In this document: positions 1,044-52,335 of the stretch, one piece after another
How positions within the stretch are numbered: the first letter of the stretch is position 1
Layout of the letters: each line of letters starts with the position of its first letter
Assembly: GCA_024655945.1 (NCBI GenBank)
Contig: JANLFK010000007.1
Span: 133,123-197,122, forward strand
Origin: Candidatus Zhuqueibacterota bacterium
GTDB lineage: Bacteria > Zhuqueibacterota > Zhuqueibacteria > JANLFK01 > Oleimicrobiaceae
Direction of reading: 5' to 3'
DNA length: 64,000 bases
Notes under the pieces: model-generated
Databases searched by the model: none
Told to the model about the DNA's origin: nothing
The model's input: the letters and a program-made list of their open reading frames with translations, nothing else
Made by a program: the position numbers and the translations under genes

Positions 1044-1108
1044 GGTGGGGGCAGTTCCCCGTCGCTCGTCGACTGTTCAGGTTACGTAACTGTCATATTT
1101 TTGCCCGG

Positions 1109-1123
1109 TGGCATAGCCTTTGC
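1109..1123 (+). promoter_or_regulatory. candidate sigma-54 (-24/-12) promoter upstream of the giant adhesin gene
   Basis: TGGCAT-agcct-TTGC shows the canonical GG-N10-GC spacing, ~170 nt upstream of the adhesin start. A 10-bp perfect palindrome GTTACGTAAC lies at 1081-1090. Confidence 0.3.
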
Positions 1124-1292
1124 CCAAAGGGAAGCGAACGCGCCGGAAGCACCGGCGTAGCGCCCAGCTAACGTTAAGCAAAATCAAGTTGCTGAGAGGG
1201 GGCGTGACGCGCCGGAGCTGTCTTTGCAGTGAGATGGTGTCTTTGCGTGAAACACCCACGCTCGGGGTTGTGGAACTGTGGAGGGTACAAGG

Positions 1293-4200
1293 ATGATGCT
1301 CAAGACACATGTGGTGCGGTGGGGGATGGTAGCGGTCCTCTTGGCGGTGGTGGCCGGCTTTGGTGCGGCGCAGACCATGGTTGACAATTTCAACCGGACG
1401 CAGCTTGGGTCGAATTGGACCGCCGATCCGGTCTACCAGATTGTCAACAATGAGTTGGCCAATACCAGCACAGTCTATCAATGGCCCGGGTATCTGGCGG
1501 TGTTCAACGCCATGACCGGGCCCACCACGGTCTCTTTCAAGTGGGGCACTACTGCCGACACCATTGGTACGCGGGAGGGAGCCCTTGCGGTCATGCTGGA
1601 CGCCAACAGCGTGAATGCCAACGGGTACATGATCTGGCATCACAGCACCAACAAGAGGATTTACCTGTACACGATTGCCAATGGGGCCCCCGGGGTGAAA
1701 GTGGACGACAAGGCCCCCTATCTGCCTGCTCCCAAGGCCGGCCAGGTCATGAGGGTGGTGATCACCTCCGATGCCGCTGGCTATCGGTTCGACCTGTACA
1801 TCAACGACCAGCTTGACGGCACGCTCACTGACCCGTTGAAGCGTGCTGGCAGCCTCAATGGGTATGCGGGCGTCATACTGAAGGGTAACCTCAATAACAA
1901 CATCGACGATTTCACCGTGTCCAAGGCCGGCGGCGGTGCTGAGACGCGCGACGACTTTAACCGCGCCGACGGTCCCCCGGGCGCGAACTGGAGTGCCGAC
2001 CCCGTCTACCAGATTGCCAGCAACGAGCTGGCCAACACCAACACCAACTACGTGTGGGGCGACCTTGCTATCTTCACCGCGCATCCGGGGCCGAATATGG
2101 TGCAATACACCTGGGGCGTGGGCGCGAACGCAGCCGGCATTCGCGAAGGCGCCTTTGCGGTGATGCTGGATAACGATAACCCTGATTCGGCGAACGGCTA
2201 CATGGTGTGGCACGCGGGCACCCGCCTCTATCTCTGGACGATTGAAGGAGGTGTGCCCAAGACACCCATCGTGAACATTGCCGCGGCACTGGCAGCTCCC
2301 ACGGCGGGTCAGACCGTTAAGGTGCTGATCACCGAGAATGCCAACGGCTACCATTTTGACTACTACGTGGACGACCAGTTCGACGGCCGTGTGTCTGATC
2401 CGTTGAAACGCGTGGGGAGCATCAACGGCTACGCGGGTGTCATGCTCAGAGGCGGAGTTGACCTCAACAACAACATCGACGACTTTGTTGCCGCCACCGT
2501 GGTGGACAACACGCCACCAGCAGCGGTGACCAATCTCGCGGTCAGCGCTACCACTGCCAGCTCTGTGACCCTGACCTGGACGGCCTCCGGCGATGACGGC
2601 ACGGTAGGCACGGCCGCCTCCTACGACCTGCGCAGGTCCACTTCGCCCATTACCGCCGCCAACTTTGACGCGGCCACCCCGGTCACCGGCCTGGGTACGC
2701 CTAAGGCCTCCGGCAGTGCGGAGACGTTCACCGTCACCGGTTTAAACTCGGCGACTACGTACTACTTTGCTCTTAAGGTGATCGACGATGCCGGCAACAA
2801 GAGCGACATCTCCAACGTGGTAACGGCCACCACGCAGAGCCCGGTGCGCTACGCCACCTACTGGGACACTTTCGAGCGCACGCAACTGGGTGACGATTGG
2901 GCGGCAGATCCGGAGTATGTGATTGAGAACGGGGAGCTGAAGAACAGCGTGACCACGGGCACCGCTGCCTGGGGCTATGCGGCGGTGTTCACAAAGTTCC
3001 CCAAGCCGCGTGCGGCGATGATCGTATGGAGCGAAACGGCGACCACTGCCGGTATTGGCCAGGGTGCCCTCTGTGCGATTATGGACCAGCCGAATCCCAA
3101 TGCCAATGGCTACATGATCTTCCACATTGACACCAGGCTCTTTCTCTACACGCTCAACGCGGGCAACCCCGGCGTGCAGGTGCAGTTGCTGACAAATGTG
3201 GCCACGCAACCGGCGGCAAGGGACACCTTCAAGGTGGTGTTCAGCACGGATGCCACCGGACACCACTTTGACGTCTACAAGAATAGCACCTTTGTGGGGC
3301 GCCTCAATGATGCTTCGCGCCTGATCAATCCGGCCACCTGGTATGTGGGTGCCTACCTCAAGGGCGGCGCCGGGTACGGCGGTGCCAACAACATCGAGGC
3401 CTTCGGTGTGGAATTGCAGGCCACCGAACCCACCAGGGTGGAGTACTGGTCGGGCGATGCGCAGACTGGGCGCATCGGCGAGGCTTTGCCGCAGCCCCTC
3501 AAGGTGCTCGTCACCGATGCCAACAACGTGCCGGTGCCGGGTGTGTACGTCGACTTTGCCGTCACCAGTGGGGTGGCAAGCTTGAGCACCGATATCACTT
3601 CCTTCGACGGCAACATCTGGCTAGAAGCGGAGAGCGGCATGGTGGAAACGCCCATGGTGCGCATCGCCGATGCAGACGCTGCGGGCAGCATGTGCGTGGG
3701 CGTGCCGACGCTCAACACTACCAATGACACGGGCAAGGTGGAGATTCACTTTTTCGTGCCGCAAACCGGCAACTACTACCTCTGGGTGCGCTACAAGGCC
3801 CCGGACAACCTGTCCAACTCCTTCTACGTGAAGAAGGACAAGGGGGCGTACGCCCTGGTGAACCTCACCGTGTCCACCACCTGGGCTTGGTCCAAGTACG
3901 CAACGGCGTTCAACTTTACCAAGGGTGGACACAGCATCACCCTGAAGAATGCCGAGGACGGGACGCTCATCGATAAAGTTCTCTTGACCACCTCGACGAC
4001 TTACACGCCCTCTGGTCAGGGGAGCTTGGCGACCACGTACTCAGACAAACTCACTGACGGCGACGGCCTGGCTTCGGCCATCTGCACGCTGGGGCTGCAG
4101 GTGGGCACGGTCACGGTGGAGGCGCGCGCCTACTATCGTGGGGACCAGCTCACAGGGAGCCCTGTAGTCTTTACCGAGTCGGCGGTAGGCGGCGAGGCGA

Positions 4201-7200
4201 GCCGCTTGGTGTATGTCTCAGGTGATAGCGTCTTCGGCCAGGCGGGGCAACGATTGCCGCAGCCGTTCGTGGTCAAGGTAACTGATGCCTTTGGCAACGG
4301 CGTGCCGAACGTCGCGGTCACCTTCTCCATCCTGGAAGGCGGCGGTACGCTGTCGAACGCGCAGCCTGTAATGACTGACAACAGCGGCCAGGCATCCACC
4401 TACCTGACCTTGGGCTTTGGCTCCTACCTGCAGCGGGTGCAGGCCAGTGCGCCCGGACTGGAGGGGTCGCCCATCATCTTCCGCGCCTATGCCACGGGCC
4501 TGAACCTGGCAATGTCCAAGGTGAGTGGCGACGGACAGTCCGGAACGGTGGGCACCGTGTTACCCCAGCCCTTGGTGGTCAGGGTGGCGCACGTGACCTC
4601 AGGCGATCCGGTGGCAGGCTTCCCGGTGACCTTTGTAGTAACGGCAGGGGGCGGGGAGCTTGATGGGAGCGCGACCACGAAGGTGGTGACGACCAATGCG
4701 GAGGGCCGGGCCTCGGTGACATGGACGCTGGGTGATGCCGCCGGTACCAATACCTGCGAAGCCAGGGCTACCGGCGTGGGCGGTTCACCCTTGGTGTTCA
4801 CGGCGACTGGCCAGCCCGGCCCGCCGACCACATTCACCAAGATCTCGCCATTGGAGACAGTGAGCGGGCCGGTGGGCATGCCCCTGGATGAGCCTTTCCG
4901 CGTGCGCGTCACTGATGCCAAGGGGAATGGCATCCCTGGACACCAAGTCCGTTTTGTGCGCACCATGGGTAGCGGCACCATGGACGGCATGACCGAGCGC
5001 AATGTGGCCACCGACGCGCAAGGGTATGCCCAGGTGATCTACGTGATGGGCAGCGCCCTCGGCGAGACGAACCGCGTGGAGGCCTCCGCGCAATACCAGG
5101 GCGCGCACTTGGCGGGCTCGCCGGTGGTCTTTACCGCCATTAGCACCGAAGGGGTGGCGCATCAGCTGGCCAAGGTCTCTGGCGACGGCCAGAGCGGAAC
5201 AGTGGGCACGGTGCTACCTGCGCCGTTTGTGGTGCGGGTCACCGACATCCTGGGTAACCCGATCGCTAACCATCCGGTGCGCTTTGCGGTCATCGGCGGT
5301 GGCGGCAACATCGGTGGGCAGACCTCTGTGGAGGTGCCAACGAACGCCGAGGGGTTGGCGTCGGTCACGCTCACTCTTGGGCAGGTTGCAGGTCGCGAGG
5401 TGCACGTGGTAGAGGTGACCTCGCAGCGGAACCAGGTGCCCTTGCAGGGCTCGCCCAAGTACTTCAAGGCCTCGGCTACCCCAGGCACGCCCTCGCAGCT
5501 CGTCTACGTGTCTGGCAACTACCAGAGCGCTGCCGTGGGCACCACTTTGAACGACCCGCTGAAGGTGAAGGTGGCCGATGCCTACGGCAACGGCATCAGG
5601 GGACATCTGGTCACCTTTAAGGTCATCTCTGGAGGCGGCAGTTTTGCCGGCATTCCGGAGCAGAACGCGTACACGGACAGCTTCGGCGTCGCCATGGCGT
5701 TCTTGACCCTGGGGACGCAGCCTGGGCAGAACAACAACGTGGTCGAAGTGTCGGCCAAGCAGAGTGGCGTCCACCTGGACGGCTCGCCGTTCACCTTCTA
5801 CGCGACTGCCTCTCCGGGCATTGCCGCTGCGCTGCAGTACGTGTCCGGGCGCAACCAGTCGGCCGAGGTAGGCACCGTACTCCCGCAGCCGCTGGTGGTG
5901 AAGGTCGTGGACAGCTTCGGCAACGCAGTGGTCGGGCACAATGTCACCTTCTCGGTGATCGAGGGTGGGGGTACTCTTGCGGGACAGACGCAGAGGAACG
6001 TGCTCACGCTCTCCGATGGCACGGCACGGGTGGTCTACACCTTAGGCACGGTCGCCGGGACGCTGAACAATCTGGTGCGCGCCAGCGTGCCAGGGCTATC
6101 CGGCTCGCCGGTCGATTTCTACGCCACTGCGCTCCCGGGCCCGCCCGCGGCGCTGATGGAGGTTTCCGGAAACGGGCAGACCGGCGCGGTAGGTACGCCG
6201 TTGCCGCAGCCGTTCAAGACAAAGGTTGTAGACAACTATCAGAACCCGATCAACGGTCACATCGTCACCTTCAGGGTGTTGAGCGGTGGTGGGAACCTGG
6301 CCGGGGCCAGTCGTCGCGATGTGTTCACCGACACGCAGGGCATCGCGCAAGTGACGCTGACGTTGGGCGCCACCCCAGGGGTGAACAACAACGTGGTCGA
6401 GGCGACCAGTGTTGCTCGCGACAGCACGCCTCTGCCTGGCTCGGGCGTCCGCTTCATCGCCTCGGCCACGGTGGGAGCGCCCAATAAGCTGGTGATAGTC
6501 AGTGGCAACAACCAGGAAGGCATCGTGGGCAACCCGCTGCCGCAGATGCTCACCGTCAAGGCAACCGACTCGCAGAACAACCCCATCGTCGGCCACTCGG
6601 TGACGTTCAGGGTGATGGCCGGCGGCGGCACGTTGGACGGCCCCACGGACACGTTGCGGGTGGTACAGACCGACGTCGAGGGCAAGGCGGCAGTGTTCCT
6701 CATCCTGGGCCCGGTTGCCGGGCAGAACAACAACGTCGTGCATGCCATCGCCACCTACGGCGGCAGCCAGTTGTCTGGTTCGCCGGCGGTCTTTGTCGCC
6801 TCGGCGCGAAGCAGCAACGCCACTGCCATCGAGAAGGTCTCGGGCGATGGCCAGTCAGCGGCTGCGGGCTCGACCCTGGCGCAGCCCATCCGCGTGCGGG
6901 CCCGCGACAGGAACCAAAACCCGGTTGCAGGCCACCCAGTGACCTTCAGGGTGGTGACAGGCGGCGGTGTGTTGAACGAGGTGGGCAACATCGTGGTGGT
7001 CAATACAGGCAGCGACGGTATTGCCGAGGTCACCTGGAAGTTGGGCACGGTGGCGGGCACGAATAACAACACGCTTGAAGCGACGGCAACAGATGGCGTG
7101 AACCCGCTGGCCGGCTCCCCGTTGCTGTTCACCGCATCGGCTTTTGCCGGCCCGCCCAGCGCCCAGGCCTCCACCATCACGGCCACTTCTCCCATTCCCG

Positions 7201-9806
7201 CGGATGGTGTGAGCAAGTCGCCCATCACCGTCAGGTTGCGCGACCAGTACAACAACCCGGTGCCTAACGCAGCCGTGATCATCAACGCCACGGGAACCAA
7301 CAATATCATCACGCAGCCGATGAGCCTCACCGACCCCAATGGCGAGACCCAGGGCTATCTTGCTTCGACGAAGGCGGAGGTGAAGGTAGTGAGCGCCCGC
7401 GCCGTGACCCATGGCGTTGACCTGCTGGCTACCGCCCAGGTGCGCTTCACGGCGCTGGCCGCCGCGCGCATCGCCGAGTTCGGTGGCAATGGCCAGATCG
7501 GCAACATCGGCACCGTGCTTGCCAATCCGCTGCAGGTGCGAGTGACTGACCGCAATGATAACGGCATCGTTGGCTATGCGGTGCAGTTTGCGGTGACCGC
7601 CGGCGGTGGCAGCATTGTCGAGCCGCAGCCGGTATATACCGACAGTAACGGTGTGGCACAGGCCCATTGGATCTTGGGGCGGACCGCCGGCTACAACCGC
7701 GTCGAGGCACGCGCCCCAGGTCTTAGCGGCTCGCCAGTGAGCTTTACTGCCTTCGGCCTGGAGCCGACGCCAGCGGCGATTGCCATCCACTCCGGCAATG
7801 AGCAGACCGGCATAGCCGGGCGGCTGTTGCCGCAACCGCTGGTGGTAAAGGTGACCGATGCCGCGGGCGTGGGGGTCTTTGGTCGCGCCGTGAGGTTTGA
7901 TGTCATCCTGGGCGACGGGGCCCTGGTCACCCCTGCAGTGGACACCACCGATGCCTATGGCTTGGCGGAGACCTATCTGACCCTCTCGCGAAGCTCCGGA
8001 TTGAACCTGGTGCGCGCGACTTGTCAGGGTCTGACCGCCACGGTCACCTTCACGGCCTACGCCGGGTCGGACGTAGCTACTAAATTGGAAATCTACTCTG
8101 GTGACAAGCAGGAGTACGTGGTGGGTCGGACGTTGCCGCTGCCGCTGGTGGCAAGGGCGTTGGACAAGAACAACAATCCCGTCTCCGGGGTGCCCGTCAC
8201 CTTTACGGGAATTCAGGGCAATGGCACCCTGCCCAGCGACAACACGCGGCTGACCGACAACGAGGGAAAGGCCAGCATCCCGTTCACTCTGGGCACCGCC
8301 GCGGGTACCTACCTGGTTCGCGCAGCGGCTCTGGGCTTGACCCCCGTCGTCTTCACGGAGACCGGCTTGCCGGATGTGCCCGCGAATCTGATCTACGTCA
8401 GTGGCAACGGCCAGACCGGTAGCGTCGGGCGGGAGACGGTCTTCCCGTTGCAAGTGCGTGTGACCGACCAGTACGGGAACCCCGTGCCCAACTCCTCGGT
8501 CACCTACGTGGTAATCCAGGGTGGCGGCAGCATTGTCGAGCCGCAGCCGGTCTACACCAATGGCAGTGGCATTGCTTCGGCGCGCTGGCGGCTCGGCCCG
8601 ACGGTGGGTGAGAATAAGTGCCTGGCCTACAAGCAGGGCTGCCTCGGCTCGCCCATTGAGTTCACTGCCGTGGCAGTGGAGAATGCCTTCCCGCAGCTCG
8701 TGTTGCCGTCGGGCATCACGGTGCAGGAGACGCAGCGGGTGCGCTTCACGGTGGTAGCGACCGACGCCGACGGCGACCCCCTCACCTATCACGCGCGCAA
8801 GCTGCCCGCAGGCGCCACCTTCGACTCCTTGGGCACGCGGGTGTTCGACTGGACGCCCAACTATGCGCAGGCTGGGGTCTACTACCCGGTCTTCATCGCG
8901 CGCGACAACAAGGGCGGCATCGGCATCGACTCGGTGCGTATCGAGGTGCTAAACTTTAACCGTCCGCCGCACATCGTCGGCTACTCGCCGGTGTTCGACC
9001 AGATCACCATCGTGCAGCCGGATTCGGTCACCTTTGTGGTGGAGGCGGCTGACTTGGACGGCGACTCGCTGCGGTACGAATGGACCGTGGCCGGCATCAT
9101 CACTTCCACCGCGAGCACCTTCGTGCTCAGGTCGACGCTGTTCTCCATCGGCAACTATGACGTCAAGGTGAAGGTGAGCGATGGGTATGACACCATCGAG
9201 CGGACGTGGCACGTGCGCATCACCTCGACGGCCGTGGAGCTGGAGAGCTTTGCGGCGCGGGCCGTTCCCTACGAAGGGGTGGTCATCGAGTGGAAGACCG
9301 GGTTCGAGGCAAACAACGTGGGCTTCCACATCCTGCGGAGCTGCGCGCGGCAGAGCGGCTATGTGCCCGTGAACAGCGAGCTCATCCTCAGCAGGGATGA
9401 CCGCACCTACACGTTCGTGGACAAGACCGCCAACGAGGGAGGCGCGTACTACTACAAGCTCGTCGATGTCGACCGGAATGGGACGCGTACGGAACATGGC
9501 CCGATTGCCGTGCTCGCACCGGTGCCGGCCAAGTATGCGTTGTCCCAGAACTACCCGAACCCGTTCAACCCGGTGACGACCATCCGCTACGAGCTGCCTG
9601 CCGCCGGCCGGGTGACCGTGAAGATCTACAACATCTACGGCCAGCTGGTGCGCACCCTGGTCGACGAGCAGGTGGCCGCAGGCTACCACACGCTGCTGTG
9701 GGATGGGCGCGACGAGGACGGCCAGGCGGTCTCCTCCGGGGTGTACTACTACCGCATGGTCTCTGGCACCTTCGTGGAGACCAGGAAGATGGCACTGCTG
9801 CGGTGA
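1293..9806 (+). CDS. giant (~2840 aa) secreted cell-surface adhesin with a T9SS C-terminal sorting domain
   Basis: Signal peptide MMLKTHVVRWGMVAVLLAVVAGFGAAQ. A GGAGGG SD sits 6 nt before the ATG at 1293 (the ORF track starts at GTG 1278). Three ~190-aa N-terminal repeats (F[ND]R..LG..W.ADP.Y.I.N.ELAN) lie at ~1380-1940, 1944-2500 and 2860-3420, with an FN3 domain (~2514-2840) between repeats 2 and 3. A beta-sandwich/CBM-like module follows (~3620-4010). About 15 Big-type Ig repeats (motif [VY]SG[DN].Q.G.VG..LPQP[LF].V.V.D..GNP) span ~3430-8680. Cadherin-like/He_PIG modules (~8690-9230) and a C-terminal NYPNPFNP...YYYR T9SS sorting domain complete the protein. No in-frame stops over 8.5 kb. 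Confidence 0.9.
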   Translation: MMLKTHVVRWGMVAVLLAVVAGFGAAQTMVDNFNRTQLGSNWTADPVYQIVNNELANTSTVYQWPGYLAVFNAMTGPTTVSFKWGTTADTIGTREGALAVMLDANSVNANGYMIWHHSTNKRIYLYTIANGAPGVKVDDKAPYLPAPKAGQVMRVVITSDAAGYRFDLYINDQLDGTLTDPLKRAGSLNGYAGVILKGNLNNNIDDFTVSKAGGGAETRDDFNRADGPPGANWSADPVYQIASNELANTNTNYVWGDLAIFTAHPGPNMVQYTWGVGANAAGIREGAFAVMLDNDNPDSANGYMVWHAGTRLYLWTIEGGVPKTPIVNIAAALAAPTAGQTVKVLITENANGYHFDYYVDDQFDGRVSDPLKRVGSINGYAGVMLRGGVDLNNNIDDFVAATVVDNTPPAAVTNLAVSATTASSVTLTWTASGDDGTVGTAASYDLRRSTSPITAANFDAATPVTGLGTPKASGSAETFTVTGLNSATTYYFALKVIDDAGNKSDISNVVTATTQSPVRYATYWDTFERTQLGDDWAADPEYVIENGELKNSVTTGTAAWGYAAVFTKFPKPRAAMIVWSETATTAGIGQGALCAIMDQPNPNANGYMIFHIDTRLFLYTLNAGNPGVQVQLLTNVATQPAARDTFKVVFSTDATGHHFDVYKNSTFVGRLNDASRLINPATWYVGAYLKGGAGYGGANNIEAFGVELQATEPTRVEYWSGDAQTGRIGEALPQPLKVLVTDANNVPVPGVYVDFAVTSGVASLSTDITSFDGNIWLEAESGMVETPMVRIADADAAGSMCVGVPTLNTTNDTGKVEIHFFVPQTGNYYLWVRYKAPDNLSNSFYVKKDKGAYALVNLTVSTTWAWSKYATAFNFTKGGHSITLKNAEDGTLIDKVLLTTSTTYTPSGQGSLATTYSDKLTDGDGLASAICTLGLQVGTVTVEARAYYRGDQLTGSPVVFTESAVGGEASRLVYVSGDSVFGQAGQRLPQPFVVKVTDAFGNGVPNVAVTFSILEGGGTLSNAQPVMTDNSGQASTYLTLGFGSYLQRVQASAPGLEGSPIIFRAYATGLNLAMSKVSGDGQSGTVGTVLPQPLVVRVAHVTSGDPVAGFPVTFVVTAGGGELDGSATTKVVTTNAEGRASVTWTLGDAAGTNTCEARATGVGGSPLVFTATGQPGPPTTFTKISPLETVSGPVGMPLDEPFRVRVTDAKGNGIPGHQVRFVRTMGSGTMDGMTERNVATDAQGYAQVIYVMGSALGETNRVEASAQYQGAHLAGSPVVFTAISTEGVAHQLAKVSGDGQSGTVGTVLPAPFVVRVTDILGNPIANHPVRFAVIGGGGNIGGQTSVEVPTNAEGLASVTLTLGQVAGREVHVVEVTSQRNQVPLQGSPKYFKASATPGTPSQLVYVSGNYQSAAVGTTLNDPLKVKVADAYGNGIRGHLVTFKVISGGGSFAGIPEQNAYTDSFGVAMAFLTLGTQPGQNNNVVEVSAKQSGVHLDGSPFTFYATASPGIAAALQYVSGRNQSAEVGTVLPQPLVVKVVDSFGNAVVGHNVTFSVIEGGGTLAGQTQRNVLTLSDGTARVVYTLGTVAGTLNNLVRASVPGLSGSPVDFYATALPGPPAALMEVSGNGQTGAVGTPLPQPFKTKVVDNYQNPINGHIVTFRVLSGGGNLAGASRRDVFTDTQGIAQVTLTLGATPGVNNNVVEATSVARDSTPLPGSGVRFIASATVGAPNKLVIVSGNNQEGIVGNPLPQMLTVKATDSQNNPIVGHSVTFRVMAGGGTLDGPTDTLRVVQTDVEGKAAVFLILGPVAGQNNNVVHAIATYGGSQLSGSPAVFVASARSSNATAIEKVSGDGQSAAAGSTLAQPIRVRARDRNQNPVAGHPVTFRVVTGGGVLNEVGNIVVVNTGSDGIAEVTWKLGTVAGTNNNTLEATATDGVNPLAGSPLLFTASAFAGPPSAQASTITATSPIPADGVSKSPITVRLRDQYNNPVPNAAVIINATGTNNIITQPMSLTDPNGETQGYLASTKAEVKVVSARAVTHGVDLLATAQVRFTALAAARIAEFGGNGQIGNIGTVLANPLQVRVTDRNDNGIVGYAVQFAVTAGGGSIVEPQPVYTDSNGVAQAHWILGRTAGYNRVEARAPGLSGSPVSFTAFGLEPTPAAIAIHSGNEQTGIAGRLLPQPLVVKVTDAAGVGVFGRAVRFDVILGDGALVTPAVDTTDAYGLAETYLTLSRSSGLNLVRATCQGLTATVTFTAYAGSDVATKLEIYSGDKQEYVVGRTLPLPLVARALDKNNNPVSGVPVTFTGIQGNGTLPSDNTRLTDNEGKASIPFTLGTAAGTYLVRAAALGLTPVVFTETGLPDVPANLIYVSGNGQTGSVGRETVFPLQVRVTDQYGNPVPNSSVTYVVIQGGGSIVEPQPVYTNGSGIASARWRLGPTVGENKCLAYKQGCLGSPIEFTAVAVENAFPQLVLPSGITVQETQRVRFTVVATDADGDPLTYHARKLPAGATFDSLGTRVFDWTPNYAQAGVYYPVFIARDNKGGIGIDSVRIEVLNFNRPPHIVGYSPVFDQITIVQPDSVTFVVEAADLDGDSLRYEWTVAGIITSTASTFVLRSTLFSIGNYDVKVKVSDGYDTIERTWHVRITSTAVELESFAARAVPYEGVVIEWKTGFEANNVGFHILRSCARQSGYVPVNSELILSRDDRTYTFVDKTANEGGAYYYKLVDVDRNGTRTEHGPIAVLAPVPAKYALSQNYPNPFNPVTTIRYELPAAGRVTVKIYNIYGQLVRTLVDEQVAAGYHTLLWDGRDEDGQAVSSGVYYYRMVSGTFVETRKMALLR

Positions 9807-9905
9807 TGTCCTTCGATTGACGGTCTGAGACATTCTGGGGAACCAGGGCTTCCCTGAGCGACTGGATAAGCGTCTGCTGTCGCTTGCCCAGTTCCTTGTT
9901 CCCTC

Positions 9906-9950
9906 CGGGCCGGCACCAGGTCTGTTGGTGGTGCCGGCCTTTCCTTTTTT
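9906..9950 (+). terminator. rho-independent terminator after the adhesin gene
   Basis: GC-rich hairpin GGGCCGGCACCA-ggtctgt-TGGTGGTGCCGGCC followed by TTTCCTTTTTT. Confidence 0.55.
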
Positions 9951-11501: not shown

Positions 11502-13052
11502 ATGAGTAGGAAGGAAAAAGAGAATCTGGGGGAGCGCAAGGCGAAGAGCAACAAGCAGCCCGCAGGCTCTCAGGGCAGGCGAGTGTCGCTTGGGACCTGG
11601 AAGGTCGACAGCGAGGCGATCTTCGAGAGCATCTCTGACGGCGTTTTCACGGTGGATTTGCAATGGCGCATCACCTCCTTCAATCGGGCCGCGGAGCAGA
11701 TCACCGGGGTGCCGCAGAGCGAAGCGCTTGGCCGTCTATGCTGGGAGGTGTTCCGCGCCAGCCTCTGCGAATCCGACTGCGCCCTGCGCCGCACCTTGGC
11801 GAGTGGCCAGCCGGTGGTCGGCCAAACCGCTTACATCGTCACCGCCCGAGGCGAGAGAATTCCCATCAGCGTTTCCACGGCCGTCTTGCCCGATGCTCAG
11901 GGCAAGGTGATCGGTGGTGCGGAAACCTTTCGCGACTTGAGCGAAGTCCAGGCCCTGCGCGAAGAGCTGGAGGGACGGGCCCGCGTTGGTGAGCTCTTCA
12001 GCCAGAGCCCGGAGATGCAGAAGATTTTCGCTGTGCTCCCGGCTATTGCCGCAAGCCCCTGCACGGTTCTCATCACAGGCGAGAGCGGGACGGGGAAGGA
12101 GCAGTTGGCGCGTGCCATCCATGCCTTGAGCCCAAGAGCAAAGGGACCCTTTGTGGCGGTCAACTGTGGCGCTTTGCCGGAGACACTCTTAGAGTCGGAG
12201 CTGTTCGGCTACACAGCGGGCGCTTTCACAGGCGCCACCAAGGACAAACCCGGCCGTTTCGCCTTGGCAAAGGGCGGCACGCTCTTCTTGGACGAGATAG
12301 GCGACATGACGCCTGCCCTTCAGGTGCGGCTTCTGCGGGTGCTGCAGGAGCGAACCTACGAACCGCTGGGCGCCGTGCGAAGCGAACAGGCCGATGTGCG
12401 TATCATCGCGGCCAGCAACAAGGATCTGGCGGCGCTGGTGAAAGTGGGGAGCTTCCGCGAGGACCTGTATTATCGCATCAACGTCGTGCGGCTGGACCTG
12501 CCGCCTCTGCGCAGGCGCAGGCAGGACATACCGCTGCTCATTGAGCAGATGATCGAGCGGTTCAACCGCTTGCACCACAAGTCGATCCGTGGAGTGAGCA
12601 GCGATGCGCTCTCCCTGCTCATGGCCTACGACTGGCCTGGGAATATCCGCGAGCTGGAAAATGCCATTGAGCACGCCTTCATTCTCTCTCAGGGGGAGCT
12701 GATAGAAATGGTGCACTTGCCTCCGGAGCTTACCGGTGCCTCGCACCCCTTCCGGCCGCAGGGCGAGGGTCGTCGCCCCGTCAGCGACGCGCAAAGAGCC
12801 AAGGCCCTCGTGGAGGCGCAAGCAATCCAACGTGCGCTGGAGCGCCACGGTTATAATCGCGTGGCTGCCGCTCGCGAGCTGGGGATGCACAAGAGCACCC
12901 TTTTCCGCAAGATCAAACGCCTGGGTCTGGTGTTGCCGGAAAAAGGCGGGCGCTCGCGCCGCTCAGTGGCAGTCGTGCGCCTCTGTTTGCTCGGGAGAGT
13001 CGCACCGGTGCGCCTCGTTTGGCTGCCTGGAGATGTCTCATGTCTCATCTAA
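11502..13052 (+). CDS. sigma-54-dependent Fis-family transcriptional activator with N-terminal PAS domain
   Basis: PAS region FESISDGVFTVDLQWRITSFNRAAEQITG. AAA+ sigma-54 interaction domain: Walker A GESGTGKE, GAFTGA loop, FLDEIGDM Walker B, ESELFG, R-finger. C-terminal Fis-type HTH. Confidence 0.9.
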   Translation: MSRKEKENLGERKAKSNKQPAGSQGRRVSLGTWKVDSEAIFESISDGVFTVDLQWRITSFNRAAEQITGVPQSEALGRLCWEVFRASLCESDCALRRTLASGQPVVGQTAYIVTARGERIPISVSTAVLPDAQGKVIGGAETFRDLSEVQALREELEGRARVGELFSQSPEMQKIFAVLPAIAASPCTVLITGESGTGKEQLARAIHALSPRAKGPFVAVNCGALPETLLESELFGYTAGAFTGATKDKPGRFALAKGGTLFLDEIGDMTPALQVRLLRVLQERTYEPLGAVRSEQADVRIIAASNKDLAALVKVGSFREDLYYRINVVRLDLPPLRRRRQDIPLLIEQMIERFNRLHHKSIRGVSSDALSLLMAYDWPGNIRELENAIEHAFILSQGELIEMVHLPPELTGASHPFRPQGEGRRPVSDAQRAKALVEAQAIQRALERHGYNRVAAARELGMHKSTLFRKIKRLGLVLPEKGGRSRRSVAVVRLCLLGRVAPVRLVWLPGDVSCLI

Positions 13053-13101: not shown

Positions 13102-13117
13102 TGGCACGCCTGTTGCA
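13102..13117 (+). promoter_or_regulatory. sigma-54 -24/-12 promoter (TGGCAC-N5-TTGCA)
   Basis: TGGCACgcctgTTGCA is a near-perfect consensus. It lies 50 nt after the EBP gene stop and ~43 nt upstream of the GTG start at 13160, which has a GAGGGAG SD. Confidence 0.6.
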
Positions 13118-13979: not shown

Positions 13980-14139
13980 CTTGGCTGCAAGAGGCGACAC
14001 CCCGTCCCGCGCCGAGGGGCGGAAGTAATCCTGTCGCAAGGCAGTCACTCACCACCTCCCCAAAATGGCAACTGGCGAGGGGGGACTCGTGCCGTCTGCC
14101 TGCGTGGCCCTATTGATGTGGAAAGGAGCACCGAAGAGC

Positions 14140-15126
14140 GTGCCGAACGATTCCACAAGTACAGAGCCGAGGACCGTGTCCATACAGGTCGAGGACTTAC
14201 GCAAGGCCTTCGGCGAGGTGCGCGCATTGGACGGGGTGTCCTTCACCGTCTATCAGGGCGAGCTGTTCGGCTACCAGAGCCCCAACGGAGCGGGCAAGAC
14301 GACGACCATCAACCTGCTCACGGGTCTGGCCAGGCCGGACAGCGGTTCCATCCGCATCGCCGGCATCGACTGTGCCGCTGACCCCAAGGCTGCCCAGCAC
14401 TTGATCGGCGTGGTTCCGGACGAGAGCAATCTCTACCCGGAGCTCACGGGCTTTGAGAACCTTTGTTTCTGCGCGGCGCTTTAGGGCGTGAGGAAGGCGG
14501 AGTGCGAGGCGCGAGCAGAGGCGCTGTTGGACAGCTTTGGCCTTGCAGAGGCAGCGCACCGTCGGTTCGCCGGCTACTCCAAGGGCATGAAGCGCAAGCT
14601 GACCATTGCCGCTGCCCTCATTCACCGGCTCCCTCTGCTTTTCCTCGACGAGCCGACCACCGGCATCGACGTGGCCAGCGCCAGGCACATCCGGCAACTG
14701 ATTGCCAAACTGCACGAGGAAGGCACGACCGTCTTCCTGACCACCCACTACATCGAAGAGGCGGAGCGGCTCTGCCAACGCATAGCGCTCATTGTCGCCG
14801 GCCGCATCGTGCGTATCGACACCGTGGAGGCTTTGCGGCAGGACTCCCAGCAGCCGTACGTGGTGCACCTGGTTCTTGGCAACGCGGTGCCGGGCCTGCT
14901 GGAAAAGCTCGCCGCCGCCTTCCCGAACTTGGTCTTCTATGACCGGCAGCCGGACGTGATCCGGGTCGAGTCGCCGCTGCCGGTGCGCTGTCTGGAAGAG
15001 ACTGGAGCCGAGGTCAGAGAGGCAAAAATGGTGGTCCCTTCACTGGAAGAGGCGCTTGTGCGCATCACCGGCATCGAAGCGGAGGCCATGCGCCGCGATG
15101 CCGAGAAGAAAGGGGGCGAAGGATGA
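14140..15126 (+). pseudogene. ABC transporter ATP-binding protein interrupted by an in-frame TAG at 14482-14484, with an atypical Walker A
   Basis: Two same-frame ORFs (14065-14484 and 14488-15126) together encode a complete ABC ATPase (Q-loop, signature YSKGMKRKL, Walker B LLFLDEPTTGID, H-loop). The stop replaces a position normally occupied by Tyr (LENLCFCAAL*GVRKAE versus the usual ...Y.. pattern). Walker A reads YQSPNGAGKT rather than G..GPNGAGKT. Confidence 0.7.

Positions 15127-26520: not shown

Positions 26521-26524
<4 letters not shown>
26129..26524 (-). CDS. YgjP-like (DUF45/M48-family) zinc metallopeptidase-like protein accessory to the type I R-M system
   Basis: HELVHLKVPNHGRLF carries an HExxH motif. 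ATGA overlap with the hsdR stop. DUF45 genes commonly accompany hsdR. Confidence 0.65.
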
Positions 26525-29499
<2,975 letters not shown>

Positions 29500-29503
<4 letters not shown>

Positions 29504-30174
29504 GGTGTGTCCTCCAAAAGATGGGGACTTGTAGAAGTACCGCGCTGCTGTGCCCCCTGGATCGTCTCCCAGATCTTTTGTGCCAATGGATCATCGCCTG
29601 TGCGCTCCGGGTTATAGCGATCCAGATGCAAACGCAACGGGTTTTCGGCAATATATTGGCGAATGACTTCCAAAGTTTTATCATTACGAATAATGTGTTC
29701 ATAATAGTTCCGTTGCCACAGAGAAACGCCATAGGTGTTGGATAACGCATTGGTTCGTTTGGTGACCGCAGATTTGAATTGGCAAACAATCGCGCCAATG
29801 GGTGATGGAACCGGACCACATGGCCGTTTCGTATGGCCAACCGATGTAGGGGCGACCCGTCGGGTCGCCCCTACATCAACGATCCAAATGATGCCGTGAA
29901 TGTGATTGGGCATGACCACGAATTCATCGGCCCGCAATGGCACATACGGACGAATCCGCGCGGTTTTAAACCATTCCTCGCGCACCATTTCACCCAGCGC
30001 ATTGAGCCGCATCACCCCGTCCACCACACGACCGAACAGGTGCGTTCGGTCGTGCGTGACGATGGTGATGAAATACGCCCCGGGTTGGGTGTAATCGTAC
30101 CCTTTCAGGCGAATGGAACGCCGGTGGTGACGGGTTGGGTCATACGGACACACGAGGTTCCTCCTGCCGAACAC
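29500..30174 (-). CDS. REP-associated tyrosine transposase (RAYT; IS200/Y1-transposase-like), copy 1
   Basis: GTG start. RSIRLKGYDYTQPGAYFITIVTHDRTHLFG, HUH motif NHIHGIIWI, catalytic Tyr region WQRNYYEHIIRNDK. Stop overlaps the hsdR start. A 35-nt palindrome sits inside the coding sequence. Confidence 0.8.
29843..29877. repeat. REP-like perfect palindrome inside RAYT copy 1
   Basis: GATGTAGGGGCGACCCGTCGGGTCGCCCCTACATC. The 29-nt core GTAGGGGCGACCCG(T/C)CGGGTCGCCCCTAC recurs at 31483-31511 and, degenerate, at 28171-28195. It is translated in-frame as VGATRRVAPT. Confidence 0.8.
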
Positions 30175-31444
30175 GCGCTACGAACGACGCCGGCAACTGT
30201 CGCCGGGCGCTCATCAACTGGTGCAGCAGCGAGCGGAAGAGTTCCTGCGCCGCACGCACCTGCGCCTCCTCCGCCGCCAGGCCCCGATCCACCGCCTGCA
30301 GGATGCGGGCGATTTCGCGCTGCTCGGAGAGCGGGGGGAGGGGGATGGGAAGATTTCTCATTACCCCCTGGGATAATTTTCCTCGCGTCGTGCCACTAAT
30401 AAACATGGAGATATCCATCCAGTGCAGCACATGCATCAGGAACCAATTATCCAACTTGTCTGGAATGCCCTTGAGTACATGGGCATGATTGTTAACCCAG
30501 AACTTGCCCTGCATTATGTAAGCAGATTGTTCACACGCTCCCCAATATCCTTCATCTTCAGCCAACAAAACAAATTCTCCATCAAACAGGTAGTCGTCGA
30601 TAAAGTCTAGAATGCCATTTGCGCCACAATACGGGTAAATCCCCTTACGTCGCTGTCTCTCTTTCTCATTCAGAGGAATTCTTATGTGGTCGAGAATCTC
30701 AACAACCTCCCCCAACCTCACCACCCGCCAGTGTGCCGGCAGGGGACCAAGTTCGGTCTCCTGCAGCGGCACCTGAGCGGCCCGGTCGAGCGGCACGGGG
30801 CCGTAGGTGGACAGGTGGCGCATCAGGCTGCGCTTCAGTTCGCGCAGCGCGGCGATGACCCGCTCACTCGCCTCCTGCGCCCGCTGCACCGCGCGCAGCA
30901 CATGGGCAATGGCGCGTTGCTCGGGGAGAGGGGGGAGGGGGATGGGAAAATTTTTCAGAACAGTTTGACTAATATTTGGCTGAGCGCCGCCATAACGTTC
31001 AGTCAACAACTCATCTCGGCGACGAATGAACGTGTAGAACAAGTATTCCGAAGACATCTCCTTATGGGGAAATATTGCGCAAACAGCCTGGTTGGTAGCG
31101 GCATTTATCTTCAACAATCCAACTTTTCCTGTGGTAGCGCCATACATTGCAACCAGTAAAGTTCCTTTTGGGAAAATTCTAGCGCTGGAATTCAGTAACC
31201 CCAATTCCGTAAGGCTCTCTTCTGTAAATTCAATCGCGGCATCTCTTAGTTCGCCAGATTTCACCCAGGGTATTTGCCCTCCAAAGTATTCATCTCTTTT
31301 TCGGTCAGGAGTTCCTCCGCTTTTGGTCTCCGCCACCTCCCCCAACCGCACCACCTGCCAGTAAGCGGGCAGGGGGCCGAGTGCGGTCATTTTGAAGCCG
31401 TCGGGGAGGTCGGTTGGAGCCTCGGGTGGAGTGGGGCGGGTCAT
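30140..31444 (-). CDS. hsdS: type I restriction-modification specificity subunit HsdS (two TRDs)
   Basis: 434 aa. Duplicated conserved repeats (LPPLPEQRAIAHVL / LPPLSEQREIARIL) flank two variable target-recognition domains. Confidence 0.9.
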   Translation of the reverse strand: MTRPTPPEAPTDLPDGFKMTALGPLPAYWQVVRLGEVAETKSGGTPDRKRDEYFGGQIPWVKSGELRDAAIEFTEESLTELGLLNSSARIFPKGTLLVAMYGATTGKVGLLKINAATNQAVCAIFPHKEMSSEYLFYTFIRRRDELLTERYGGAQPNISQTVLKNFPIPLPPLPEQRAIAHVLRAVQRAQEASERVIAALRELKRSLMRHLSTYGPVPLDRAAQVPLQETELGPLPAHWRVVRLGEVVEILDHIRIPLNEKERQRRKGIYPYCGANGILDFIDDYLFDGEFVLLAEDEGYWGACEQSAYIMQGKFWVNNHAHVLKGIPDKLDNWFLMHVLHWMDISMFISGTTRGKLSQGVMRNLPIPLPPLSEQREIARILQAVDRGLAAEEAQVRAAQELFRSLLHQLMSARRQLPASFVARVRQEEPRVSV

Positions 31445-31482
31445 GGTTGTGCCTCCTCCGGCGTATCCAGGTCGTTGGTTTT

Positions 31483-31511
31483 GTAGGGGCGACCCGCCGG
31501 GTCGCCCCTAC
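31483..31511. repeat. REP (repetitive extragenic palindrome) at the 3' end of RAYT copy 2
   Basis: GTAGGGGCGACCCGCCGGGTCGCCCCTAC is a perfect 29-nt palindrome that overlaps the RAYT2 stop codon and lies 38 nt upstream of the hsdS start. Confidence 0.8.
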
Positions 31512-32100
31512 CAGGTCGGGCGCGGGCCTGGGGGGGCGGGGCCAACCGTGGCGGCGTTGTAGCGGTCCAGGTGCCAGCGCAGCGGATTTTCGGCGATGTA
31601 GCGGCGAATGGTGTTCAGGGCGCCTTCGTTGCGGAGGATGTGTTGGTGATAGTTGCGTTGCCACACGGGCGGGCCGGGCGTGCCCCGCAGGGCGTTGATG
31701 CGACGGGTGACGGCGGATTTGAACGATCCAACGATAGCCCCCAGCGCCCCCGATGCCGGTCCGGATGGGCGGGCGTTTCTCGGTAAGGGCCACGCATGTG
31801 TCGCCCTTACGCGGTTTCGCGCGCCATCGGTTTCCACAATCCAAAGCATCCCATGAACGTGATTTTGCATCACCACGAAGGCGTCCAATTCCGCGTGCGG
31901 AAAATGGTTGGGAATAGCATCCCAACACGTCTGTACAATACGCCCGTATTCATTCAACACCATCTCCCCACCCACCACGGCCCCGAACAGGGAGGCGCGT
32001 TCGTGGGCGCAGATGGGGATGAAATACGCCCCCGGTTGGGTGTAATCGTACCCCTTCAACCGGATGGACCGGCGATGGTGGCGGTCGGGATCGTAAGGGG

Positions 32101-32104
<4 letters not shown>
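31508..32104 (-). CDS. REP-associated tyrosine transposase (RAYT), copy 2
   Basis: 198 aa from the ATG at 32104 (MTPYDPDRHHRRSIRLKGYDYTQPGAYF..., NHVHGMLWIV, WQRNYHQHILRNE). The ATG overlaps the hsdM TGA (ATGA). A GGAGGTG SD is present. About 60% identical to copy 1. Contains an internal 8-bp-arm palindrome GTAAGGGC-N12-GCCCTTAC (31783-31810). The track ORF to 32683 is a spurious extension. Confidence 0.8.
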
Positions 32105-33681
<1,577 letters not shown>

Positions 33682-33755
33682 CTTTGTCTCCTCCACAAGT
33701 GCCCTGCCGGCACAAAATGGATCAGTTCCCCGCTGCAAGGGGCGGACACGCTGCG

Positions 33756-34343
33756 TCACTCAGCAGAGGGCTCACCTCTTGCTGCGGCGGCCCTTTGCCC
33801 CAGGGACCACTCCTCTCTCAGGATGGCGTAGATCGCCGCGTCTTCGAAGGTGCCCCAGCGGAAGAGCGATTGCCGAAGCGTGCCCTCGTAACGCATTCCG
33901 ATTCTTTGCGTCACCCGCCCTGAAGCCGGGTTCTTGGTCATGTGCCGCGCCTGCACGCGGTTCATACCCAGCACGCGAAAGGCATAGTCCACCATGGCCT
34001 TGGCAGCGTCTGTGCAATACCCCTGGTTCCAATAGGGCCTGCCCACCCAATAGCCGAGCTCGGCGAGCTTGTTGGTGGCGTCGATTGCTGCATGGATTGC
34101 GCCGATGAGTTTCCCGCTATCCCTGAGGGTGATGGCCAGGGTAAGGGCCTGCCCGTTGTCATACGCTTGCTGGTGGGTGGCAATCCACTGTTCGGCCACG
34201 CCATCCCCATAGGGATGAGGGATAGCAGTGGTAGTTGCCGCCACTTCCCGAGCGCCGGCCAGTTCTCGGACGACGGGGGCGTCGTCAAGCCTGAACGGGC
34301 GGAGGATTAGCCGAGCGGTGCTTAACGTTGGCATTGCGGCCAT
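33756..34343 (-). CDS. GNAT-family N-acetyltransferase (RimJ/RimL-like)
   Basis: 195 aa. LILRPFRLDDAP..., acetyl-CoA-binding segment, WNQGYCTDAAKAMVDYAF. Confidence 0.8.
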   Translation of the reverse strand: MAAMPTLSTARLILRPFRLDDAPVVRELAGAREVAATTTAIPHPYGDGVAEQWIATHQQAYDNGQALTLAITLRDSGKLIGAIHAAIDATNKLAELGYWVGRPYWNQGYCTDAAKAMVDYAFRVLGMNRVQARHMTKNPASGRVTQRIGMRYEGTLRQSLFRWGTFEDAAIYAILREEWSLGQRAAAARGEPSAE

Positions 34344-39703: not shown

Positions 39704-40062
39704 GGGGACGACATGGTTTCGACGGGAGTCGCGGGGTTAGAGACTGCATGCCGAGGTTCCAGCACCTCGTAAAACCGCTGGAAGCTAAATGTAAACGCAG
39801 ACAATGCGTATGCTCTGGCTGCCTAATTAGTGCAGCCACGTCCCTTGCGGGCTTAGCCCACTGGGCCCGTGCCGGGGCGTCGCTGACAGTGGGATAGCTG
39901 AGGACGATGCTCAGGCGTCCTTGGCGAATCTTCCCTGAGCTGGCCCGCTCCGGGCTTGGCCGGTTGCGCCTGGAGCAGGCGAGAGCAAGCAACGGGCTAA
40001 GCATGTAGAGGTCTCTAAGACCGGGCTTTCGGACGTGGGTTCGATTCCCACCGTCTCCACCA
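39704..40062 (+). ncRNA. ssrA: tmRNA (ssrA)
   Basis: 5' GGGGACGACATGGTTTCGACGGG pairs with 3' CGTCTCCACCA. T-arm GGGTTCGATTCCC. The tag reading frame 39797-39826 encodes ADNAYALAA*. Confidence 0.85.
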
Positions 40063-41407: not shown

Positions 41408-41686
41408 GTGTTCCTCTTTGGCCACATCATCGCGCCGCTGGTGATTTGGCTGATCAAGAAGGAAGAGCTGCCCTTGGTGGACGACCAGGGCAAAGAGTCG
41501 CTTAACTTCCAAATTAGCTTGACCATCTACCTCGTGGCTGCAGGGTTGCTGAGCTTCGTGCTCATCGGCATCTCCCTCCTCATAGCGCTGGGCATTTTCG
41601 GCCTGGTGGAGGTCATCATCGCGGCCGTGCGGGCCAATGAAGGAGAGCGCTTCCGCTACCCGCTGAACCTGCGCCTCATCAAGTAG
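41408..41686 (+). CDS. DUF4870-family small membrane protein (N-terminus probably longer than the ORF call)
   Basis: HIIAPLVIWLIKKEELPLVDDQGKESLNFQI...ANEGERFRYPL matches DUF4870. The same frame upstream encodes the conserved first helix (ERTWALFCHIGALAGFVFLF) back to a stop at 41309, but without an ATG/GTG/TTG. Confidence 0.55.
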   Translation: MFLFGHIIAPLVIWLIKKEELPLVDDQGKESLNFQISLTIYLVAAGLLSFVLIGISLLIALGIFGLVEVIIAAVRANEGERFRYPLNLRLIK

Positions 41687-43500: not shown

Positions 43501-43534
43501 GCTCGCGGGGTGCGGCGTTTCGAGTGAGGTGCCT

Positions 43535-52299: not shown

Positions 52300-52335
52300 G
52301 CGTGACGTCATCTATTGCATAGCGAGGTGAAGAGG

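Follow-up and report, generated by a model that had tools for sequence, protein, structure and literature searches.

A giant surface protein with lectin-like heads, an immunoglobulin-like stalk and a predicted sigma-54 promoter in a Zhuqueibacterota bacterium

The stretch of DNA analysed here, called the window below, comprises 64,000 nucleotides of contig JANLFK010000007.1 (positions 133,123 to 197,122 of the forward strand) from the assembly GCA_024655945.1 of a Candidatus Zhuqueibacterota bacterium. Close to its start, the window contains a gene that probably encodes a giant glycan-binding surface fibre, exported by the type IX secretion system (T9SS) and transcribed from its own sigma-54 promoter. 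A glycan-binding fibre is the best reading of the gene because it follows a cluster of genes for glycan synthesis and modification; from the domains and this context we infer a role as an adhesin or as a fibre of the matrix. The predicted protein begins with three lectin-like repeats, referred to as N-domains (N1 to N3), continues as a stalk of immunoglobulin-like (Ig-like) Big_1 domains, and ends in a T9SS sorting domain. As a class the gene is ordinary, since giant T9SS adhesins that have Ig-like stalks are already familiar. Three features go beyond the ordinary: a lectin-like family for which no model exists, a putative slot for nested binding modules in the first Ig-like domain, and a well-supported sigma-54 promoter conserved in the family. 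The closest named relative of the N-terminus of the protein is from a Candidatus Oleimicrobiaceae bacterium, a family placed in the phylum Zhuqueibacterota, formerly KSB1, of the FCB group (PMC11683472).

The promoter candidate of the gene is a TGGCAT-N5-TTGC element with a GG doublet at 1110-1111 and a GC doublet at 1122-1123. The doublets are 10 nucleotides apart, which is the correct spacing for a -24/-12 element. The sequence TGGCATAGCCTTTGCC departs from the 16-nucleotide consensus TGGCAC-N5-TTGCW at two positions, each of which is weakly conserved. In the window, the strict pattern TGGCAY-N5-TTGC has two matches where 0.53 are expected, and both are intergenic and upstream of plus-strand genes. 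The position of the element predicts a transcription start near 1134 and a leader of ~160 nucleotides. No sigma-70-type promoter was found in the intergenic region ahead of the gene.

The element is conserved in two orthologous loci, L001 and L004, the intergenic regions of which have diverged apart from two islands. The first island comprises the sequence ACTGT, a palindrome, a T-rich run, and the -24/-12 element, and the second is formed by the last ~90 nucleotides of the leader. Both loci retain the sigma-54 motif at position -184 relative to the ATG. It differs at degenerate positions only: the GG and GC doublets are invariant, and L004 reads TGGCAC, with the C of the consensus.

The motif also recurs at more distant loci. 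A scan of GTDB species genomes yielded 18 loci encoding an N-domain, of which the close orthologue L004 was set aside and 17 were counted. In 15 of these 17 loci, the operon is headed by exactly one plus-strand TGGCAY-N5-TTGC. The homologous loci contain 16 matches to the motif in 200 kb, compared with 1.7 ± 1.3 in dinucleotide shuffles. The preliminary description of the gene, made from its letters alone, had offered the motif at 1109-1123 (TGGCATAGCCTTTGC) as a possible promoter. Conservation in orthologues and recurrence at the heads of homologous operons in other phyla make the support from sequence comparison much stronger than its author could know, even though it amounts to about four independent types of operon, as discussed below. 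The presence of a sigma-54 promoter ahead of the gene is thus well supported.

An alternative is that the functional promoter is of the housekeeping sigma-A type of the FCB group and acts through the -7 box TATTTTTG (1096-1103), whereas the sigma-54-like motif is incidental or the site of another protein. TATTTTTG fits the Bacteroidota -7 consensus TAnnTTTG (cited in PMC9723704) and is located within the conserved island around the promoter; in addition, several of the seven TAnnTTTG matches in the window are positioned upstream of genes in the right orientation. However, the pattern is not enriched in the window, where 7.8 matches are expected, and the box was therefore rejected as a general promoter of the window. 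The T of the TA pair in TATTTTTG is replaced by C in L001, whereas the defining sigma-54 positions are all invariant. Furthermore, the sigma-54 motif recurs in otherwise unrelated sequences upstream of homologous operons, which have no TAnnTTTG. It is quite improbable that the -7 box, and not the sigma-54 element, is the functional promoter.

Thirteen genomes, belonging to KSB1, Calditrichota, and other groups, share one operon (L006-L019, ~4400-7700 each). In this operon, the sigma-54 motif is followed by a gene for a protein of ~470 amino acids that combines cohesin, dockerin, and a T9SS tail. The second gene encodes an N-domain protein of ~600 amino acids with a sub-threshold BNR/Asp-box match, and a third protein with a T9SS tail often follows. 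The combination of cohesin and dockerin on a T9SS cargo protein seems unusual. GG-N10-GC matches at -148 to -177 ahead of the ~600-amino-acid homologues, first taken for conserved promoters, were dropped because they lie within the preceding gene, where they code for WDGRDD, a motif of its T9SS tail.

The 10-bp palindrome GTTACGTAAC upstream of the -24/-12 element, noted already in the preliminary description, is confirmed and is invariant in L001 and L004, whereas the 30 nucleotides upstream of it have diverged. Its centre is ~49 nucleotides upstream of the predicted transcription start. Typical sigma-54 enhancer sites lie farther upstream, and the palindrome is too near the -24 element to be one of them. 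A metagenome-wide scan for the palindrome coupled to the sigma-54 motif returned eight loci, none related to the gene, and the coupling was dropped because, by a rough estimate, this is about the number expected by chance for 20 specified bases.

In the three orthologous loci, the last ~90 nucleotides of the leader are conserved more than the codons of the signal peptide. Within this block, TGTCTTTGC is duplicated, and GGTGT…ACACC may form a hairpin, in which L004 shows a single compensatory change. The block has no match among Rfam families, and the leader does not fold more stably than shuffled sequence (z 0.19). The leader was rejected as a known RNA; the consensus fold of the three sequences has few compensatory pairs, too few to count.

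The three N-terminal repeats of ~190 amino acids reported in the preliminary description are present, and their designation as lectin-like holds, with moderate confidence, at the level of the fold. Identity to the first repeat is 57% for the second and 42% for the third. None of the three matches a family in Pfam or NCBIfam, even with E-values of up to 5, and the Pfam search gave no match to the CBM66-related family DUF1080. When 1.84 billion representative proteins were searched exhaustively with a profile, only 196 representative clusters were identified with E ≤ 0.001. Most of the family members are 2300-3400 amino acids long and contain one to five copies of the N-domain. The N-domain is thus a lectin-like family of ~196 clusters without a Pfam or NCBIfam model. 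The AlphaFold2 model of the N-domain (pTM 0.72, pLDDT 67) is an all-beta jelly roll. The best Foldseek matches of the model are CBM66 (E 9e-6), galectins, and GH16 glucanases, with E-values of ~1e-5, a probability of 1.00, and TM scores of 0.43-0.55. A search of the N-domain profile against PDB sequences again ranked the CBM66 levanase first, with a non-significant E-value of 0.13. The model suggests, with moderate confidence, that the N-domain has a fold of the ConA-like lectin type that is closest to CBM66.

The first Big_1 domain is interrupted by another module. A hidden Markov model (HMM) built from the Big_1 units of the protein itself matches the first unit in two separate pieces, corresponding to model positions 2-54 and 46-106. 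The two halves are formed by residues 719-780 and 901-974 (numbering from GTG 1278). When the first unit is aligned with 13 other units, it differs by a single gap of ~148 columns, which is located in one loop, and AlphaFold2 folds the two halves as one Ig domain with pLDDT of 95-98. Based on the split HMM matches, the single-gap alignment, and the joined halves of the model, the beta-sandwich resembling a carbohydrate-binding module (CBM) of the preliminary description is a domain nested in the first domain of the stalk. A separate, putatively all-beta module does exist, as had been proposed, but it lies within the first Big_1 domain and the CBM models score below their thresholds.

The inserted module is putatively carbohydrate-binding, and the only support for this is positional analogy: in the relative P0009, the first Big_1 domain carries a nested Malectin domain in the corresponding loop. 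The insert has no relative among PDB sequences, and a word-indexed protein search returned neighbours of the Big_1 domain only. Because the AlphaFold2 model of the insert has a pLDDT of ~40, its Foldseek result is uninformative. The possibility that the insert is a copy of the Golvesin_C domain of the neighbouring gene was rejected, as the match spans only 20 residues with an E-value of 0.008. Comparison of the sequences indicates that one loop of the first stalk domain houses different putative binding modules in different relatives.

The remaining architecture of the protein largely agrees with the preliminary description, which had named a domain scan as the means of checking it. HMMs back the Ig-like array, the fibronectin type III domain, and the sorting domain. 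Inspection of the translation by eye identifies a signal peptide with a hydrophobic core and an AAQ cleavage-type motif, and N-termini of the same kind are present in the orthologues P0002, P0004, and L004. The fibronectin type III domain, which scores above the cut-off of its family as anticipated, is positioned between the second and third N-terminal repeats. The stalk matches Pfam Big_1 (PF02369) in 15 stretches with 335 bits (E 3e-102), and the self-built HMM recovers the same 15 units and provides their coordinates. Unit 11 (residues 1976-2066) is of the classical invasin-D3 type (Invasin_D3, E 1e-33). The approximately 15 Ig repeats of the invasin/intimin type described previously therefore correspond to 15 tandem homologous Big_1 domains with the regular motif reported for them, but the likeness to invasin and intimin does not extend beyond the Big_1 domain itself. 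The Pfam scan of the protein does not detect the N-terminal beta-barrel of inverse autotransporters, and the N-terminus is instead formed by the signal peptide followed by the lectin-like repeats. The protein does not belong to the inverse autotransporters.

The segment after the stalk, previously described as cadherin-like modules, is better named a He_PIG/Big_9 domain followed by a PKD domain. The score of Cadherin_4, 15.8 bits, is below its cut-off of 25.1, whereas He_PIG and Big_9 pass on the same stretch. The scores of He_PIG, Big_9, and PKD, and the 32.2-bit score of the sorting domain, were obtained with isolated segments; on the complete protein, Pfam also reports Big_9 and a C-terminal FlgD_ig/Por_Secre_tail domain. 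The next module, at 9240-9527, has no family match in Pfam or NCBIfam; the one match listed in a search of PDB sequences covers 30 residues of carcinoembryonic antigen (E 1.3e-4) and is not considered meaningful. The sorting domain predicted previously passes the curated cut-offs of both type A models, TIGR04183 and PF18962, the latter on the isolated domain (32.2 bits against 27) and not on the whole protein (24.8 bits). The type B model TIGR04131 fails with 13.5 bits against 35. The diverged full-length relative P0004 (2832 amino acids) has the same architecture and order of units. More generally, the relatives share a frame of N-domain, fibronectin type III domain, N-domain, Big_1 array, He_PIG domain, and T9SS tail, often with a GDSL/SGNH esterase at the N-terminus. 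The domain composition supports the view that the protein is a giant surface protein and a T9SS cargo. The preliminary description had alternatively called it S-layer-associated; this part does not stand, as no SLH or S-layer domain was found in the protein.

The plus-strand open reading frame extends at most from 1278 to 9806, and the 2842 codons of the preliminary description are counted from GTG 1278. The frame is real and corresponds to this maximal version. However, translation is likely to start at ATG 1293, giving a protein of 2837 amino acids, because both a ribosome-binding site GGAGGG at 1280-1285, just ahead of this codon, and the public annotation of the contig (2837 amino acids, start ATG 1293) point there. 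The pattern of G+C content across codon positions is clearly coding, with a value of 0.81 at the third position (GC3). Downstream of the gene, the hairpin at 9908-9950 is predicted to be a good intrinsic terminator, part of which is recovered by a consensus terminator scan. The terminator would make the gene a monocistronic unit.

The preliminary description held that the repeats were similar enough in DNA to make the gene prone to collapse or expansion in assembly and to variation in repeat number in vivo. The gene does encode 15 homologous domains in tandem, in which a motif recurs regularly, and if it were a hot spot of repeat number, its assembled length would be unreliable. Nevertheless, the codon-aligned units are on average 49% and at most 57% identical in pairwise nucleotide comparison, no exact repeat in the gene is longer than 26 nucleotides, and comparison of the gene with itself by blastn gives only three short off-diagonal high-scoring segment pairs. 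Tandem Repeats Finder detects no array in the gene, only a 17-nucleotide microsatellite. The same 2837-amino-acid gene is present in two independent records, GCA_029907585.1 (JARYLN010000004.1) and JGI metagenome 3300038743, and P0004 keeps the order of units. The repeats have diverged anciently at the DNA level. This divergence and the shared architecture of P0004 refute collapse or copy-number variation, and an unstable repeat number is hardly credible.

Features of the gene and its flanking regions, in coordinates of the window
Feature	Position	Strand	Evidence
10-bp palindrome GTTACGTAAC, candidate regulator site	1081..1090	+	unique in window; invariant in L001 and L004
Sigma-54 type -24/-12 element TGGCAT-N5-TTGC (TGGCATAGCCTTTGCC at 1109-1124; TGGCATAGCCTTTGC at 1109-1123)	1109..1124	+	pattern match, conservation
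Near-invariant 5' leader block including GGAGGG 1280-1285	1200..1292	+	three orthologous loci; 1140-1199 diverged
Coding sequence, 2837 amino acids (likely start ATG 1293)	1293..9806	+	open reading frame call, GC3, public annotation; maximal frame from GTG 1278
Sec-type signal peptide MMLKTHVVRWGMVAVLLAVVAGFGAAQ	1293..1373	+	read from translation
Lectin-like domain N1	1374..1943	+	ConA-like jelly-roll model; no Pfam/NCBIfam hit
Lectin-like domain N2	1953..2513	+	57% identical to N1
Fibronectin type III domain	2523..2828	+	PF00041, E 1.5e-7, 32 bits, cut-off 25
Lectin-like domain N3	2865..3443	+	42% identical to N1
First Big_1 domain, split in two halves	3432..4199	+	self-built HMM, unit alignment, AlphaFold2
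Inserted module, ~145 amino acids, putatively all-beta and carbohydrate-binding	3609..4043	+	sub-threshold Golvesin_C and CBM_35
Big_1 domains 2 to 15, stalk	4200..8687	+	Pfam Big_1, 15 stretches; coordinates from self-built HMM
He_PIG / Big_9 Ig-like domain	8706..8942	+	PF05345 37.6 bits, cut-off 24; PF17963 32.2 bits, cut-off 23.6
PKD domain	9009..9215	+	PF00801 23.9 bits, cut-off 23.5, borderline
Module of ~95 amino acids ahead of sorting domain	9240..9527	+	no Pfam/NCBIfam family; contains VIEWKTGFEANNVGFHILRS
T9SS type A C-terminal sorting domain	9552..9803	+	TIGR04183 40.5 bits, cut-off 23; PF18962 32.2 bits, cut-off 27; FlgD_ig 51 bits
Predicted intrinsic terminator: 12-bp G+C-rich stem, then T-rich run	9908..9950	+	fold -27 kcal/mol, z -2.45

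The 10 kb upstream of the gene contain the glycan cluster, which includes two PMT_2 genes, an epimerase, a GT2 glycosyltransferase, a GHL15-Golvesin_C protein, a CE4 deacetylase, and two small membrane proteins. The cluster is syntenic in L001. A perfect sigma-54 promoter TGGCACGCGACTTGCA (L022:5925-5940) is positioned ~3.7 kb before the start of the window, in the gap ahead of a gene for a 104-amino-acid protein and the genes for the GHL15-Golvesin_C protein, the CE4 deacetylase, and the two small membrane proteins, which directly precede the adhesin gene. Another perfect sigma-54 promoter, TGGCACGCCTGTTGCA, is located at 13102-13117, 50 nucleotides past the stop codon of an activator gene (11502-13052) that encodes a PAS-AAA+-HTH_8 protein with an intact GAFTGA at residue 240. 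Downstream of TGGCACGCCTGTTGCA are a DUF5320 gene (13209 onward) and genes for an ABC transporter, a VIT-family protein, and an Mrp/NUBPL ATPase. The arrangement suggests that the activator controls the operon next to it, which may serve the handling of metal or iron.

According to the proposed mechanism, sigma-54 RNA polymerase would stay closed at the promoter of the adhesin gene until it is opened by an AAA+ activator, for which the PAS-AAA+-HTH protein encoded at 11502-13052 is a candidate. The product would pass the inner membrane via the Sec pathway, and its C-terminal domain would route it through the T9SS, to be cleaved off while the protein is tethered to the cell surface. The Ig stalk, predicted to be tens of nanometres long, would place the nested module and all three lectin-like heads at a distance from the cell. 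The heads may bind a polysaccharide, most plausibly the product or substrate of the upstream cluster (PMT_2, GT2, epimerase, GHL15-Golvesin_C, and CE4), and the outcome would be adhesion or cohesion of the matrix. In relatives of the protein, the frame of Big_1 array and T9SS tail is combined with GDSL/SGNH esterase and Malectin domains.

Several observations weigh against this reading. The source is a metagenome-assembled genome, and the reading rests on sequence and models. Thirteen of the 15 loci that support the sigma-54 promoter represent one orthologous type of operon, so the 15 are not independent and correspond to about four types. Conservation alone does not single out sigma-54, because the conserved block also holds TATTTTTG. 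No activator gene is present within 6 kb in the other homologous loci, and the three local sigma-54 promoters have no convincing upstream activator site in common. Scans of the 64-kb window detected neither rpoN nor components of the T9SS machinery (PorV, PorU, Sov/SprA, and GldKLMN). The lectin-like model is of moderate quality only (pLDDT 67, TM ~0.5). The model of the insert is of low confidence (pLDDT ~40), and its closest Pfam families remain below their thresholds, Golvesin_C with 19.5 bits against 31.6 (E 1.1e-3) and CBM_35 with 17.6 bits against 28 (E 5e-3).

The same domains could serve a different purpose. The protein may not be mainly an adhesin but a surface-tethered scaffold that captures polysaccharide for degradation or modification, similar to a cellulosome or a Sus system. 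The GDSL/SGNH esterase domain at the N-terminus of relatives is consistent with such a scaffold, as are the 13 related loci in which the lectin-domain gene comes after a gene whose product unites cohesin and dockerin with a T9SS tail. By fold, the N-domain is most similar to CBM66, which a levanase uses as its binding module, and a glycoside-hydrolase-like protein and a deacetylase are encoded next to the gene. However, Pfam scans detect no catalytic, cohesin, or dockerin domain in the protein, the upstream cluster with its GT2, PMT_2, and epimerase genes looks biosynthetic rather than catabolic, and no transporter or SusC/D pair is adjacent. A capture scaffold is therefore unlikely. It is very unlikely that the gene encodes a gliding-motility adhesin of the SprB/RemA kind or an S-layer protein. 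A giant T9SS cargo with lectin-like heads resembles RemA of Flavobacterium johnsoniae, but scans with NCBIfam and Pfam give no relation to the SprB or RemA families, the sorting domain is of type A and not type B, SLH and S-layer domains are absent, and scans of the window found no gliding genes.

The reading of the gene as a glycan-binding fibre with its own sigma-54 promoter can be extended to its relatives. It is possible, although rather unlikely, that the N-domain represents an undescribed lectin family that belongs to a sigma-54-controlled, T9SS-exported module distributed across uncultured FCB phyla (KSB1/Zhuqueibacterota, Calditrichota, and others). The module would comprise the giant Ig-stalk fibres with the exchangeable slot in the first Big_1 domain as well as the small cohesin-dockerin operons, and with it these bacteria would produce a glycan-binding surface matrix that is regulated and assembles itself, in a way for which cultured organisms offer no described example.

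A sigma-54 promoter appears consistently tied to this gene family across several uncultured phyla, and at the locus described here it also precedes the neighbouring glycan-modification operon. KSB1-type bacteria have been reported to be frequent in biofilms (PMC11683472). If confirmed, the lectin-like family, the module slot, and these promoters would offer a handle on how these bacteria turn on surface-matrix genes and would provide a further case of sigma-54 control over T9SS cargo.

Other genes of the window are described for completeness. Two proteins with C-terminal domains of the FlgD_ig type, encoded at 41806-43500 and 43364-45313, are likely T9SS cargo; they have no recognised domain besides the tail, and a gene for a TonB-dependent receptor follows them. 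A candidate site at 41535 was rejected as a promoter for these other T9SS cargo genes, since it is inside the open reading frame of a small membrane protein. The 1130-amino-acid protein encoded at 52315-55707 has a C-terminal Golvesin_C as its only recognised domain and is positioned between an ABC ATPase gene and an efflux set of outer-membrane factor, HlyD, and AcrB. An ABC transporter ATPase gene at 14065-15126 is broken by an in-frame TAG at 14482-14484 (…FCAAL*GVRK…). It is a pseudogene or the result of a sequencing error, and the NCBI annotation contains no gene and the JGI annotation two fragments. On the minus strand, 26521-33759 encodes a type I restriction-modification system (hsdR, hsdS, and hsdM) with two unassigned open reading frames among its genes. 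A full-length tmRNA gene is located at 39704-40062 (Rfam RF00023, 213.9 bits).

The protein resembles invasin of Yersinia and intimin of E. coli in that tandem Big_1 domains form a rigid stalk presenting a lectin-like head, and its unit 11 is of the invasin-D3 type. However, both of these are inverse autotransporters: their beta-barrel is at the N-terminus, and a tip resembling a C-type lectin is at the C-terminus. Here the polarity is reversed: the heads are N-terminal, the anchor signal is C-terminal, no beta-barrel is detected, and export is predicted to proceed through the T9SS. The N-domains share the ConA-like jelly roll with CBM66, the fructan-binding module of the Bacillus subtilis levanase SacC (PDB 4b1l and 4b1m), which is their best structural match; the sequence identity is 13-16% and the TM score 0.43-0.48, so the likeness is at the level of the fold.

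The link of sigma-54 promoters to genes of a polysaccharide locus is reminiscent of the exopolysaccharide loci of PEP-CTERM/exosortase systems, which involve PrsK-PrsR. FemAB-like and DUF3473 deacetylase genes are typical of such loci, and the Calditrichota relative sits behind genes of these two kinds. In contrast to these systems, neither a PEP-CTERM signal nor an exosortase is seen here, and the protein carries a T9SS sorting domain instead. A further difference is that the local activator has a PAS input domain.

A close parallel to the export signals is provided by type A T9SS cargo proteins of Bacteroidota, such as the gingipains and RemA, the latter a large lectin-bearing T9SS adhesin of Flavobacterium johnsoniae. 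Like them, the protein combines a signal peptide with a C-terminal sorting domain of ~80 amino acids that passes TIGR04183 and PF18962. It differs from them in its host, which belongs to KSB1/Zhuqueibacterota, in its passenger domains, and in its promoter: the T9SS of Porphyromonas is under PorXY-SigP control, whereas the promoter of the gene described here is predicted to be of the sigma-54 type.

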